The position numbers and the translations under genes are program-made. A stretch of DNA of 64,000 nt from Candidatus Shapirobacteria bacterium (GTDB lineage: Bacteria; Patescibacteriota; Microgenomatia; UBA12405; JAUWLS01), in contig JAUWLS010000001.1 in the NCBI GenBank assembly GCA_030613565.1, positions 27,355 to 91,354 of the forward strand. The letters run 5' to 3'. The notes beneath the pieces are model-generated. The model was given only the letters and a program-made list of their open reading frames with translations. It was not told the DNA's origin and made no database searches. Each line of letters opens with the position of its first letter. The first letter of the stretch is position 1. This document shows positions 47,990 through 54,039 of the stretch, in pieces.

Positions 47990-48502
47990 TTATTTATTAT
48001 CTTCCTCTTCCCAAGCCAACCCGCCTTCCCAGTAAAGTGATTTTTTAGAAACCAGTGCCTCTTTTAATTTCCTAAGGTCCTGAAGTTTTTTCTCTTCCAT
48101 TTTCAAAGAATTCTTATCAAGATCAAAAAACCCAAAATCAATTACTTCATCTTCGTCTATTTTTATCTTTTTAATTAGTTCTTCTGGTAATTCTCTTATC
48201 CCAAAGAAAAACTGTAAACTTTCTCCTCTGTAAGAACTATTCATCACATATTTAACTCCTAAAAAGACAGGATTCTCTATTACCAAACCGACTTCTTCCC
48301 TAACTTCTCTTTTTACTGCCTCCAGTGGTGACTCTTTCTTATTCACCATTCCACCGGCAAGACTCCACTCTTTTTTGTAACTTGCCTTCACCAGAAGCAA
48401 TTCTCCCTTTTTATTTAAAATAACCATACCTGAAGCACACCTTTTTCGAGGCAACTGAGCAAAATATTTTTCAGGCTCTATCCAGTTTTTAACCACGGCC
48501 AA
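47990..48502 (-). CDS. NUDIX hydrolase
   Basis: NUDIX box GGMVNKKESPLEAVKREVREEVGL. Confidence 0.85.
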   Translation of the reverse strand: MAVVKNWIEPEKYFAQLPRKRCASGMVILNKKGELLLVKASYKKEWSLAGGMVNKKESPLEAVKREVREEVGLVIENPVFLGVKYVMNSSYRGESLQFFFGIRELPEELIKKIKIDEDEVIDFGFFDLDKNSLKMEEKKLQDLRKLKEALVSKKSLYWEGGLAWEEEDNK

Positions 48503-48575
48503 ATTATATCATCAAAGATATTCAGTAAAGTCAACTTCACTTGACGACTAATCCTTTCAGTTAGACAATCAGTCT

Positions 48576-49277
48576 ATGAGTACACAAATAGATATTCACC
48601 CAGTTCAGTCGTCAATTTTATGTCGACTCCTTTTTACAAAAGAAGGTCGTTTTAAAGATCTTAATACCCTTAATCTCAGTACTGACCATTTTAGTTTCCA
48701 CATCAAACAACTAACCGACTGGGGACTAGTAAAAAAACTAGAAAAAGGAAAATATACCCTTACTCCAAAAGGTAAAGAATTTGCCAACCGTTTTGATACC
48801 GACAAAAACGAAGTTGAAAGACAAGCTAAGGTCGCAGTTTTACTTGTTGCTGTAAAAACAATAAAGGGAAAAAAGAAATATTTAATCCAACAAAGACTTA
48901 AACAACCTTATTTTGGATTCTGGGGTTTTGTCACCGGAAAAATTGCCTGGGGAGAAATTACAAAAGAGGCCGCATCAAGAGAGTTGAATGAAGAAACGGG
49001 ACTCAAAGGAAATATAAAACTAGTCGGTGTGAAACACAAAATAGATTACACCCAAGATCAAAAACTCCTAGAAGATAAATATTTTTTCGTATTCAAGGTA
49101 ACTAATTTAAAAGGAAAACTAAAAGAAAAATTCGAAGGAGGAAGAAACAAATGGCTAACTGAAGAAGAAATTCTCAAACTTAAAAACCTTTTTGACGGGG
49201 CAGAAGAAAGTATGAACTTCATTAAAAAACCCATTTTCAAGTTCAGTGAAATCAAGTATCTTGTAAAAAAATACTAA
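48576..49277 (+). CDS. Winged-helix DNA-binding domain fused to a NUDIX hydrolase domain (NrtR-like, inverted domain order)
   Basis: N-terminal wHTH (..HFSFHIKQLTDWGLVKKLEKGKYTLTPKG) and a C-terminal NUDIX box GKIAWGEITKEAASRELNEETGL. Confidence 0.75.
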   Translation: MSTQIDIHPVQSSILCRLLFTKEGRFKDLNTLNLSTDHFSFHIKQLTDWGLVKKLEKGKYTLTPKGKEFANRFDTDKNEVERQAKVAVLLVAVKTIKGKKKYLIQQRLKQPYFGFWGFVTGKIAWGEITKEAASRELNEETGLKGNIKLVGVKHKIDYTQDQKLLEDKYFFVFKVTNLKGKLKEKFEGGRNKWLTEEEILKLKNLFDGAEESMNFIKKPIFKFSEIKYLVKKY

Positions 49278-49320
49278 CCTTTCCCAAAAGTAGTAAAGGA
49301 AAAGTTGATAAAACAGGTGA

Positions 49321-50109
49321 ATGAAAATCGACATTTCACCGGATATTACAAAAGACCAGTTTTTTCTAAAAGATCAAAAAATCCTTGAAAAAATAGTTAG
49401 TCTAGCCAAACTTCAGAAAAAAGACGTGGTCTTAGAGATTGGTGCCGGTCCTGGCAATCTTACTCAAAAACTTGCCCTAAAAGTTTCAAAGGTAATTGCT
49501 TTTGAAATTGATAAACGTTTTAAGCCCATTCTTTCCACTCTACCCTCAAACGTTGAAGTCCATATTGAAGATGCCTGGGACTACATCCAACTTCACGGCA
49601 AATTTAGAAAGAAAAAAGTTTATAACAAAGTAGTCTCTAATCTTCCATACTGCCTTTGTGAACCTCTTTTGCACAATCTAACCTTTCTTGATTATGACAA
49701 AGTTATCCTCCTTGTCCCAAAAAAATTCATTAAAACCATTAAAAAAAATCCAATATTCTCCTCTTTTTTTAAAGTTGAAAAACACCTTGATGTTCCAAAA
49801 CAAAAGTTTAATCCCCAACCCAAAACTGACTCTGCTGTAATTGAGTTAATTAAACTTCCCGACCCAGTCAAACACCCCAACTTACCCCTGTTTTTAAAAC
49901 AATACATCTACCAACACGAAGGTCAAAAAACCAGAAATTCTCTAACCGAAGGAATCATTCATTTTTATCGTCTGACAGAAGAAAAGAAAATAACTAAAAA
50001 CGAAGCCAGAGAAAGAATAAAAAAAAGCGGTATTCCCCTAAAAATACTTGAATCACTTCCACTTACATCTTCAATCTATGAACAGATAGACAAAAATTTT
50101 ATTAACTAG
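49321..50109 (+). CDS. rsmA: rRNA adenine N6,N6-dimethyltransferase, KsgA/RsmA (Erm) family
   Basis: VLEIGAGPGNLT SAM motif and VVSNLPY catalytic motif. Confidence 0.75.
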   Translation: MKIDISPDITKDQFFLKDQKILEKIVSLAKLQKKDVVLEIGAGPGNLTQKLALKVSKVIAFEIDKRFKPILSTLPSNVEVHIEDAWDYIQLHGKFRKKKVYNKVVSNLPYCLCEPLLHNLTFLDYDKVILLVPKKFIKTIKKNPIFSSFFKVEKHLDVPKQKFNPQPKTDSAVIELIKLPDPVKHPNLPLFLKQYIYQHEGQKTRNSLTEGIIHFYRLTEEKKITKNEARERIKKSGIPLKILESLPLTSSIYEQIDKNFIN

Positions 50110-50121
50110 GTATTCTTATTT

Positions 50122-52268: not shown

Positions 52269-52442
52269 ATGGTCACCTTAGGATTAAAATCCTATGGACA
52301 CGATACTAGTGCTGCCATTGTTGTTGATGGAAAAATCATTGCTGCCACCTCCGAAGAAAGATTTAACAGAGAAAAACACAGTAGAAAATTTCCTGTTGTA
52401 TATGCTCGACCAAGTGCGATTTGTCGAGTATATACAACTTAA
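52269..52442 (+). pseudogene. N-terminal fragment (about 57 aa) of a NodU/CmcH-type carbamoyltransferase, truncated at the GC-rich tract
   Basis: MVTLGLKSYGHDTSAAIVVDGKIIAATSEERFNREKHSRKFP matches the carbamoyltransferase N-terminus, then diverges and stops. Confidence 0.6.
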
Positions 52443-53215
52443 CTCGAACTTATTTTATCAAAAATGGAGGTGTAAAACCCGAAGTTGGCCAATCGCGATA
52501 ACTCGCCATGATTAGTTCCGATATGGCGGTTGGAGTTGACCGCCTGCCTTGACCCTGACTCGGACGACGATCGAGAATGATGGTTTTGAATTGTGGTTTT
52601 TTGAAACGAAAGTTTTTAATCTTTTTTCTTGGTATTTTTGTGTGATTATTCTGTTTTTGGGTAATTAAGCTTTGGTTAAGCATTTGATGTCTTTCACCGT
52701 TTCGCGGTGAAGAAAACCAAGATATTGCATTACTCGCCCCTCAGGGGCACATATCACTTTCAAAACTCCCACCTCCTTACTCCCCCGAACTTTTACTCGT
52801 GCGCTTAGGACCCACTCGGTTTGGCTTCGCCTCCTCCGCTTTCGCAGACTCGTCTCAGACGGTCCAACCCTCGCTCCAATTACCTGACTCCAATCATCTC
52901 TACAGTTTCTCCTTGGCTCTGTGTAGGTACCCTTACTTGCCCCCACGCCTGCCATTGATAGTTCAAAACACACCTTGCCAGCCCCAACCACCCTACTGTT
53001 TTTCAGGACACTCAGTCCCACACCTTGCCACCCCAAACTCCTCGTCACGGGACTTCATTATTTATGCGGCCGCCGCCGTGAGCCAATCGCCCTATCCACA
53101 AAACCAACCCCTCTTTTCCTTTTCAGGGCGTCGGCGGCCTTATTTACCGGCCTTTCATGCCGGCGCCGGGGGCTCGGTTTGCGCCTTACTCTATCACTCA
53201 CACTAGATTAGTGAT
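52443..53215. other. GC-rich (about 55%) non-coding tract of roughly 780 bp: candidate large structured RNA or a foreign DNA fragment
   Basis: Abrupt composition shift. Only short ORFs overlapping on both strands. Internal near-repeats CACACCTTGCCA(G)CCCCAA. No universal rRNA motifs. Confidence 0.3.
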
Positions 53216-53242
53216 CTCTATGAAATTTGATACAAATAACAC

Positions 53243-53479
53243 ATGGCTAGAGAAAAGATTGCAAGCACTCACAAAGTAACCTGTAGAGGAGTTGTCACAA
53301 GAATAATTGATGGAAGAAAACAGGTTGTTTCTGCCCAAGACATACCTGTAGACGCCATAATTACAACTAAAGACAATGGTGATAGAAGAGTTACTTGTGT
53401 TCGTCGCGAGGCTACTATGTGTACTAGCTCCGGTGGTGGTGAAACATTTGCCGAGTGTGTCTATCAACATATCGCCTAA
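53243..53479 (+). CDS. Hypothetical Cys-rich small protein
   Basis: ORF with Cys spacing suggestive of metal binding; GC-elevated. Confidence 0.3.
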   Translation: MAREKIASTHKVTCRGVVTRIIDGRKQVVSAQDIPVDAIITTKDNGDRRVTCVRREATMCTSSGGGETFAECVYQHIA

Positions 53480-53586
53480 ACTAAAGTTTTAAATCAACCC
53501 ATCACGCTACCCATCTTTTTTTGTCTTTCACGGCATAACTAAACTCAACCTGGTAAAATTCAACATATTATAAAAAACAAACAAAA

Positions 53587-54039
53587 ATGTTAGATAAAAA
53601 AATTAAACCAAGAGTTCGTTTAATTGTCATTAAAGATAACAAGATTCTTCTATCTTATGTAAAAAGCGAAGATTTTTATTTCTATATTGGAGGAAAAATG
53701 GAGTGGGGAGAAACCATTAAACAAGCCTGTCAACGAGAAATGAAAGAAGAGGCCAATGCCAATTTTGACTTTAAAAAAATCATCTACATCAGAGACTATA
53801 TCAAGCCGGATATGGACGAACACAGTATTGAACTCTATATCTTAGGAGATATTGACAAATTTAAAGAAGTCGAAGGGTTAAGAGATGAAGAGTTTGATGG
53901 TGATCATTGGCAAACTTGGGTTGATCTGGATAAATTGCAAAATATTGATGTACGACCAAAAGAACTTGTTAAACAAATTATTAAAGATCACAAAAAAGGA
54001 TTTAAAACTGGAGCTATATATCTCGGAGAGATTGACTAA
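53587..54039 (+). CDS. NUDIX hydrolase
   Basis: NUDIX box GGKMEWGETIKQACQREMKEEANA. Confidence 0.8.
   Translation: MLDKKIKPRVRLIVIKDNKILLSYVKSEDFYFYIGGKMEWGETIKQACQREMKEEANANFDFKKIIYIRDYIKPDMDEHSIELYILGDIDKFKEVEGLRDEEFDGDHWQTWVDLDKLQNIDVRPKELVKQIIKDHKKGFKTGAIYLGEID

Follow-up and report, generated by a model that had tools for sequence, protein, structure and literature searches.

Genes with NUDIX, GrpB, HD, and ADP-ribosyltransferase-like folds probably share a mosaic, insertion-scarred stretch of a Patescibacteria chromosome and do not form one ADP-ribose system

We analyzed a 6-kb locus of a Candidatus Shapirobacteria bacterium, which lies at positions 47990 to 54039 of a 64-kb window of contig JAUWLS010000001.1. 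The window is the whole stretch of DNA that was scanned, and its genes were called from a listing of open reading frames (ORFs) together with Pfam and NCBIfam profiles. The initial annotation of this DNA had pointed to a concentration of NAD+- and ADP-ribose-related folds within these 6 kb, and had proposed that they may form an undescribed module for the ADP-ribosylation or de-ADP-ribosylation of nucleic acids. Genes of the NUDIX, GrpB, and HD families and an ADP-ribosyltransferase (ART)-like ORF are indeed present (Table 1), including the standalone NUDIX gene and the divergently oriented fusion of a winged helix-turn-helix (wHTH) with a NUDIX domain, both of which Pfam confirmed where they had been placed. 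However, the initial inventory overlooked a KsgA-like methyltransferase gene, a carbamoyltransferase pseudogene, a noncoding stretch of about 800 bp, and the fact that the ART-like gene is truncated.

Table 1. Features of the locus and its immediate borders (positions refer to the 64-kb window)
Feature	Positions	Strand	Evidence or remarks
MFS transporter	46756-47916		Neighbor of the standalone NUDIX gene
Standalone NUDIX hydrolase, 170 aa	47990-48502	-	Pfam NUDIX, E 1.6e-18
wHTH-NUDIX fusion, 233 aa	48576-49277	+	Pfam HTH_45, E 2.7e-6; NUDIX, E 2e-14
KsgA/RsmA-like rRNA adenine dimethyltransferase family protein, 262 aa	49321-50109	+	Pfam RrnaAD, E 1.3e-27
GrpB-family nucleotidyltransferase-fold protein, 174 aa	50122-50646	+	Pfam GrpB, E 2.7e-16
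ART-like ORF, C-terminally truncated, 211 aa	50647-51282	+	Fold comparison, family alignment
Left IS30-type transposase remnant	51283-51560	-	N-terminal helix-turn-helix only; in-frame TAA; contains repeat arm 51386-51551
HD-domain phosphohydrolase, TIGR00295-like, 219 aa	51608-52267	+	Pfam HD, E 1.1e-7; TIGR00295, E 5.7e-16
Carbamoyltransferase pseudogene, N-terminal fragment	52227-52442	+	Pfam Carbam_trans_N, E 1e-6, profile positions 3-42 of 346
Noncoding stretch, about 800 bp	52443-53240		C-rich on the + strand at 52740-53140
Small putative ORF, 78 aa	53243-53479	+	No Pfam, NCBIfam, or PADLOC match
Third NUDIX hydrolase, 150 aa	53587-54039	+	Pfam NUDIX, E 1.3e-10
Right IS30-type transposase remnant	54082-54560	+	HTH_38 and HTH_32 regions; in-frame TAA; frameshift; contains repeat arm 54082-54247
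PD-(D/E)XK nuclease C-terminal fragment with Cys cluster	54561-54844	+	Pfam PDDEXK_1, E 0.0017, profile positions 148-240 of 247, below cut-off

From the wHTH-NUDIX gene to the ART-like ORF (48576-51282), the genes share one direction. The intergenic distances are 44, 12, and 0 bp, and a terminator-like site was not found between the genes. The KsgA-like gene stands between the wHTH-NUDIX and GrpB genes, and the GrpB stop directly abuts the start of the ART-like ORF (50646/50647). A promoter and terminator scan of the locus returned nothing beyond the shuffled expectation except a bidirectional terminator-like hairpin (47923-47950), which lies between the MFS transporter gene and the standalone NUDIX gene.

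The ART-like protein belongs to a very small family: 11 homologues were found in a set of 5.8 billion proteins, and another set of 1.84 billion yielded 26 cluster representatives. The family has no Pfam or NCBIfam annotation and no relative in the PDB at the sequence level, and a single-sequence search of the window protein against the PDB returned nothing. When the family profile was searched against the PDB, all nine of the sub-threshold matches were to Tpt1/KptA, aligned on FHGT..IL..G, and weak Pfam matches to PARP appeared in 10 of 29 family members (any other Pfam family appeared in two members at most). Structure prediction and fold comparison recognized a split beta-sheet NAD+-binding core against solved ARTs, with Tpt1/KptA as the nearest solved structure to the 211-aa model, followed by PARP15 (score 6.8), PARP1 (6.3), TreX (6.2), PARP16 (6.0), CC0527 (5.8), pertussis S1 (5.7), and DarT (5.4). 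A Foldseek search of the model against the PDB gave no significant match (best E 1.4, with Tpt1 appearing as local matches of 40 residues alone). The model of a full-length homologue, P0006, forms one compact globule (predicted local distance difference test 91.7, predicted template modeling score 0.90) and recovers the same family of structural matches. Altogether, these models show that the predicted protein has a divergent ART-like fold. As such, the initial description of a Tpt1/KptA-like ART lobe abutting GrpB holds as far as fold and adjacency are concerned.

Motif I of ARTs is defined by a His within HX[S/T] where strand 1 ends (PMC8120803). In the model, H44-G45-T46 ends the strand formed by residues 42 to 47, and this HGT motif was matched with YHGT in the Tpt1 alignment and with positions ~48-73 of the PARP profile. 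In the family alignment, FHGT is invariant (H44 and G45 across 29 members) and R65, Y78, G177, and Q186 are nearly so; the window copy keeps H44, R65, Y78, and Q186. A motif that reads KTEQF in a distant sister clade reads RTRQF in the clade of the window protein, with R185 in place of Glu, where the column is taken as motif III from its position just before strand 186-189.

We compared these features with the ART clades to which the protein might belong. The hallmarks of Tpt1/KptA are an N-terminal winged-helix RNA lobe with the R-H-R-R catalytic residues and an H-H-h motif (PMC8120803). The window protein has neither this lobe nor the R-H-R-R context, its ART core beginning at about residue 40 after one short strand and one short helix, and the H-H-h motif lacks its second His (RPTFS). 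In addition, its family carries a helical insertion of 60 residues and a C-terminal domain of ~120 aa that is specific to the family. At the profile level, PTS_2-RNA (PF01885), the Tpt1 model, gave no match to the window protein, and the NCBIfam RNA 2'-phosphotransferase model gave 13.4 bits against a cut-off of 239. Given the absent lobe, the absent second His, and profile scores far under threshold, we rejected membership in Tpt1. The Pfam PARP catalytic domain scored 12.3 bits (E 0.12; cut-off 26.7), all scores of the ART-like proteins in the PARP/diphtheria-toxin (H-Y-E) comparison lie under the Pfam gathering threshold, and the partner domains of PARPs and toxins are not present. Membership in the H-Y-E clade as such was rejected on the Arg that the window clade has at the presumed Glu position. 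Compared with DarTG and other bacterial systems that pair an ART with an eraser, the window lacks a macrodomain or ARH eraser, a conserved two-gene architecture, and a PADLOC match to such a system.

One distant member of the family, P0021, which has Glu at motif III, adjoins a Bro-N domain gene on a short contig (locus L082, 217-2120); Bro-N genes are typical of phages and mobile elements. Apart from this single neighbor, the contexts of distant members, all on short contigs, were uninformative, and no family member was found in viral contigs.

The copy in the window has lost a large part of the protein. All 11 homologues (41-54% identical) are 318 to 345 aa long, and the next-closest member, P0013, has 351 aa, whereas the window copy has 211 aa and stops at alignment column ~217. 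The C-terminal region that it lacks contains many nearly invariant positions and is encoded nowhere in the window. The ORF ends ~5 bp before the left IS30-type remnant, which is on the opposite strand. An independent Logan contig carries the same order of KsgA, GrpB, and truncated ORF and breaks ~30 nt into the repeat of this remnant; since the same truncated allele recurs there, the junction is probably not peculiar to a single assembly. The lost part probably contributes to the fold, because the full-length model is a single globule and its alignments with toxin ARTs are longer than those of the truncated model (128 residues as compared with 102 for pertussis S1). Judged from these comparisons, the truncated protein is most likely inactive, and full-length members such as P0006 would suit biochemistry better than the window copy.

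The initial annotation had named gene-neighborhood conservation as a check of its proposal, and the outcome is negative: the ART-like, wHTH-NUDIX, and GrpB contexts in relatives contain no orthologue of the other members. Specifically, the ART-like family yielded three distinct contexts from ten contigs, with no NUDIX, GrpB, or HD neighbor and no recurrent partner. Orthologues of the wHTH-NUDIX protein (47-57% identity) occur in eight Patescibacteria genomes, labeled Saccharibacteria, Paceibacterota, Liptonbacteria, WWE3, and others, and none of the other genes was found by tblastn in the eight loci with their 10-kb flanks. Every one of these contexts is different and they are mostly housekeeping, as judged by eye from ORF lists and not by profile scans. 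The GrpB protein has 60 relatives (49-66% identity) on metagenome contigs in varied contexts; across these 60 loci (52 after dereplication), there were zero orthologues of the ART-like, wHTH-NUDIX, or HD proteins, and one RrnaAD gene. Relatives of the HD protein (48-74% identical) fall into four contexts with carbamoyltransferase, Ham1p, glycosyltransferase, or unknown genes as neighbors, and no NUDIX or ART gene lies by the closest of them. The gene combination is specific to this genome.

These data also bear on the possibility that GrpB and the ART-like protein are the antitoxin and toxin of a two-gene pair. The abutting stop and start codons would fit such a pair, and the structural neighbors of the model include DarT along with other toxin ARTs. 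However, zero of the three ART-like contexts has a GrpB neighbor or a recurrent small partner, no ART-like neighbor occurs at any of the 60 GrpB loci, and PADLOC matches neither protein. We give this idea almost no credence and rejected it, as the adjacency is not conserved in relatives.

The wHTH-NUDIX orthologue at L014 (9983-10702) lies antisense within the S10 ribosomal-protein operon of a Patescibacteria metagenome-assembled genome (MAG), between rpsJ and rplC; orthologues elsewhere adjoin EF-P, a release factor/AspRS pair, or S12/S7.

The wHTH-NUDIX protein had been read as an NrtR-type regulator with swapped domain order. NrtR is a NUDIX-related transcriptional regulator of NAD metabolism, in which an N-terminal ADP-ribose-sensing NUDIX domain is followed by a C-terminal winged helix, and it is associated with genes of NAD biosynthesis or salvage and releases DNA upon binding ADP-ribose. 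Both proteins carry a NUDIX domain and a winged helix on a single polypeptide. In the window protein, however, the order is the opposite, with the wHTH at residues 32 to 75 and the NUDIX domain at residues 93 to 205, and the wHTH fits HTH_45/Sso10a-type models and not the NrtR-type wing. There was no match to the NrtR profile, and no NAD-synthesis genes were identified beside the gene between 44 and 58 kb of the window. The reversed architecture thus stands, and the NrtR identity does not: we rejected it on the domain order, the canonical NUDIX box (GKIAWGEITKEAASRELNEETGL), the missing profile match, and the missing NAD-synthesis neighbors, and the contexts in the eight genomes are unrelated. 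Given its fully canonical box, the fusion protein is probably catalytic.

The two other NUDIX proteins also look like enzymes. With the NUDIX box consensus defined as GX5EX7REUXEEXGU (PF00293), all three proteins of the locus pass the Pfam cut-off and keep the REx2EE core. The standalone protein has a canonical box, GMVNKKESPLEAVKREVREEVGL, at 48284-48352, and the third NUDIX protein retains E-X7-REx2EE with Asn instead of the final Gly. The two are probably ordinary, active NUDIX hydrolases. None of the three reaches any NCBIfam substrate-specific equivalog cut-off, and therefore their substrates are not assignable; the best scores to ADP-ribose- or NAD-specific models were 29 bits for NudE (cut-off 169) and 21-22 bits for NAD+ diphosphatase (cut-off 158). 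Profile scans between 44 and 64 kb of the window found no macrodomain, ARH, NADAR, sirtuin, or NAD-synthesis gene, and PADLOC returned no system-level match, its matches being generic and at the domain level (PDC-S07 for NUDIX, mad2 for the methyltransferase domain).

For the protein encoded between the fusion and GrpB, the best model is TIGR00755 ksgA at 116.6 bits (cut-off 171), as compared with 85.9 bits for the Erm model, and among solved structures KsgA and Dim1 are its closest relatives (6ifx, for example, at 9e-20). It is probably a KsgA-type rRNA methyltransferase, and with a TIGR00755 score below cut-off it could be either a divergent housekeeping KsgA or a paralogue. This protein is central to another reading, in which the locus is a resistance-like or xenobiotic-modification island that combines an Erm-type methyltransferase, the GrpB nucleotidyltransferase, an Arr-like ART, and the MFS exporter, with NUDIX and HD proteins as accessories. 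The MFS transporter is present, the RrnaAD protein does match Erm models, and two GrpB loci in relatives (L048 and L051) also hold APH-family kinases and a Pol-beta nucleotidyltransferase. Against this, the methyltransferase scores higher as KsgA than as Erm and has KsgA and Dim1 as solved relatives, the ART-like model is structurally much closer to Tpt1 and the PARPs than to Arr, the ART-like gene is truncated, and linkage is not conserved. We consider such an island very unlikely.

The remainder of the locus lies between two insertion sequence (IS) remnants. An inverted repeat of 166 nt (99% complementary; 51386-51551 and 54082-54247) encloses the HD and third NUDIX genes, as the initial annotation had stated, and the sequences diverge immediately outside it. 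The transposase of an IS30 element combines HTH_38 at its N-terminus with a DDE catalytic domain, and terminal inverted repeats flank the element. The right-hand remnant matches HTH_38 (E 4.6e-12), the DDE domain was found in neither copy, and the same in-frame TAA is common to both (ITP*ERD). Both copies are remnants and not intact elements, and their near-identity within the repeat and divergence just outside it suggest recombination or gene conversion between them, with the 2.5-kb segment possibly being invertible. On the right, a chimeric ORF (54380-54844, + strand) fuses the IS30 remnant in frame to a PD-(D/E)XK (Cas4/AddB-like) C-terminal Cys-cluster fragment; the PD-(D/E)XK gene is thus another gene truncated by an IS30-type element. 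Together, the two remnants and the truncated genes bear out the initial view of an accessory, IS-scarred region.

Inside the segment, the closest relative of the HD gene (L087, 72% amino acid identity) is followed by a carbamoyltransferase gene (L087 3126-3608), whose frame stays open past the stop of the window copy to the contig end and whose product is 85% identical to the window fragment over 53 residues. Nucleotide similarity to L087 is limited to window positions 51565-52394, and other genes precede the HD gene there. Because the similarity is confined in this way and the carbamoyltransferase neighbor is truncated, the segment appears to be a piece cut from another context. Directly after the truncated carbamoyltransferase gene comes the C-rich noncoding stretch, which may have disrupted that gene. 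This stretch has no credible ORF, no Rfam match, no Pfam match above noise on its ORFs, and no blastn similarity elsewhere, and its RNA fold stability gave no signal on either strand (z -0.24 and -0.13). We rejected a structured RNA or an intron here on the lack of Rfam and fold-stability support. In a separate contig (L085 4224-5547), an HD orthologue (57% identity) has a Ham1p-like ITPase gene 2 bp downstream, an arrangement that suggests a role of the HD family in nucleotide house-cleaning in at least one genome.

With these data, the proposal of a single undescribed module can be weighed. In its full form, the ART would write a mark, the GrpB, NUDIX, and HD proteins would process or erase it, and the wHTH-NUDIX protein would sense ADP-ribose and regulate the operon. 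Its strengths are the real ART fold with Tpt1/KptA as the nearest solved structure, the abutment of GrpB and the ART-like ORF within a tight, co-directional array, and the Arg in place of the catalytic Glu, which could suit a phosphate nucleophile. However, conserved linkage was found in none of ~60 dereplicated related loci, an IS remnant cuts off the end of the ART-like gene, and the KsgA-like gene interrupts the array. In addition, the HD and third NUDIX genes sit in a rearranged segment with pseudogenes, a macrodomain, ARH, or NADAR is lacking, and the wHTH-NUDIX protein departs from NrtR on every point that could be compared. The NUDIX, HD, and GrpB families are not specific to NAD or ADP-ribose, and the ART-like protein is the sole component that could plausibly be ADP-ribose-specific. 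As such, the module that the initial annotation had put forward, with no linkage in relatives, a truncated ART-like gene, and no ADP-ribose-specific partner, is very improbable.

GrpB itself deserves closer attention. The window protein scores 60.6 bits against PF04229 (gathering threshold 25.5; profile positions 1-157 of 159) and also matches NCBIfam PRK03333. In mycobacteria, GrpB (UPF0157) is fused to dephospho-CoA kinase (PMC2765170), whereas the window protein is standalone. A literature search for GrpB function gave no functional study beyond this mycobacterial CoaE fusion, and with no established biochemical function, the family has no ties to NAD+ or ADP-ribose.

In the contigs of relatives, NUDIX genes are enriched close to GrpB. 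NUDIX ORFs were counted with a hidden Markov model derived from those already identified. Of 185 ORFs lying no more than three genes from GrpB, 11 were NUDIX genes, as compared with 4 of 430 in a small background sample in which kinship was not controlled (Fisher test, odds ratio 6.7, p=6e-4). This background was made up of ORFs farther from GrpB, ORFs of other loci, and those in the remainder of the window. The loci concerned are L023, L027, L031/L034, L040, L048, L051, L058-L060, L069, L075, and L079; the association is found in ~10 of 48 dereplicated loci, or roughly a fifth. In five of them (L023, L027, L051, L075, and L079), a GrpB and a NUDIX gene point in the same direction and either overlap or have 20-74 bp between them. 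At L048, ~4 kb contain two GrpB genes and four NUDIX genes, and the order at L040 is HD-ASCH-NUDIX-NUDIX-MFS-x-GrpB-Ddl-like. The NUDIX partners are of differing subfamilies and are 27-39% identical to the NUDIX proteins of the window.

One way to explain this enrichment is that GrpB and NUDIX proteins act jointly on a nucleotide or an ADP-containing cofactor in Patescibacteria, either by nucleotidylation and its hydrolytic reversal or in cofactor house-cleaning, with the ART-like, KsgA, and HD proteins as bystanders. Apart from the enrichment, the close co-directional pairs, and the density at L048, the mycobacterial fusion hints at an ADP-cofactor link. On the other hand, the association covers about a fifth of the loci and differing NUDIX subfamilies, the background was sampled sparsely and with no control for phylogeny, GrpB and NUDIX are not adjacent in the window, where KsgA lies between them, and the literature search gave no biochemical function for GrpB. 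We regard this explanation of the locus as doubtful, although it deserves more weight than a dedicated ADP-ribose module. The signal is a superfamily-level lead on GrpB function and not support for an ADP-ribose system. A broader conjecture, which we hold tentatively and do not expect to prove right in full, is that the ART-like family comprises new, catalytically active ADP-ribosyltransferases with an H-[F/Y]-[E or R] site and a C-terminal domain, found mostly in Patescibacteria, whose Arg clade might modify a phosphate-bearing substrate as Tpt1 does, and that, separately, GrpB and NUDIX enzymes are a functional pair that recurs in reduced genomes. The window copy would then be a decayed representative of this family.

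The reading that we consider probable is that these 6 kb are a variable and mosaic part of a Patescibacteria chromosome, scarred by IS elements, that holds independently distributed small enzymes and not one ADP-ribose system. Under this reading, the genes of the locus would have been inherited and distributed independently of each other. An IS30-type insertion would have removed the conserved C-terminal third of the ART-like gene in this genome, and the segment with the HD and third NUDIX genes would have been cut out of another context and now lie between inverted IS30 remnants. The NUDIX and HD proteins would probably be ordinary nucleotide or cofactor hydrolases.

Several observations weigh against this reading. 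The genes at 48576-51282 may be co-transcribed; in a compact genome, however, co-transcription is no evidence for a common pathway. The locus has three NUDIX genes in 6 kb and the remaining 58 kb of the window has none, which exceeds the expectation from a background frequency of ~1% of ORFs. This excess probably reflects both a tendency of small nucleotide-cleaning genes to gather in variable regions and a loose, superfamily-level preference of GrpB and NUDIX genes for each other's neighborhood in Patescibacteria. The GrpB-NUDIX enrichment may likewise mean that part of the cluster reflects real functional coupling, and one GrpB locus, L051, has the order NUDIX-GrpB-NUDIX-RrnaAD(-)-APH-His phosphatase. 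In addition, the 211-aa ART-like fragment retains most of the ART core and could still bind NAD+, and the sample of ART-like neighborhoods is small, with few long contigs.

Housekeeping genes flank the locus on both sides, a ribosomal-protein/TruB/UppP block at one border and tRNA-Pro, ddl, and recA at the other. Upstream, apparent rpoBC and ribosomal-protein operons (assigned from ORF order and translations, and not profile-scanned) are followed by UppP, TruB, and the MFS transporter; downstream lie tRNA-Pro, Ddl, a DUF3800 gene, RecA, RecX, RNase Y, and HU. The GC content falls to 0.32-0.33 at 49-51 kb, as compared with ~0.39 elsewhere. Because the closest relatives of the wHTH-NUDIX protein are found in Patescibacteria MAGs, we assign the locus to the core chromosome of a bacterium of the candidate phyla radiation (CPR).

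Two further features were observed in these flanks. On the minus strand at 45049-45282, a 77-aa ORF corresponds to the DNA-binding domain alone of 6-O-methylguanine DNA methyltransferase (MGMT; Pfam DNA_binding_1, E 4.7e-10) and could encode a truncated MGMT or an alkyltransferase-like (ATL-like) protein. Between ddl and recA, a 36-nt direct repeat (92% identity; 56363-56398 and 57290-57325) flanks the DUF3800 gene (56431-57207), which looks like a small insertion accompanied by a duplication of the region upstream of recA.

A coherent ADP-ribose operon in CPR bacteria would, if true, represent a new nucleic-acid modification system, and the evidence against it spares a false lead. What is new is that a very rare, unannotated protein family can be placed in the ADP-ribosyltransferase fold superfamily. 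In addition, the statistical association of GrpB with NUDIX genes offers a first contextual clue to the function of the widespread GrpB family.

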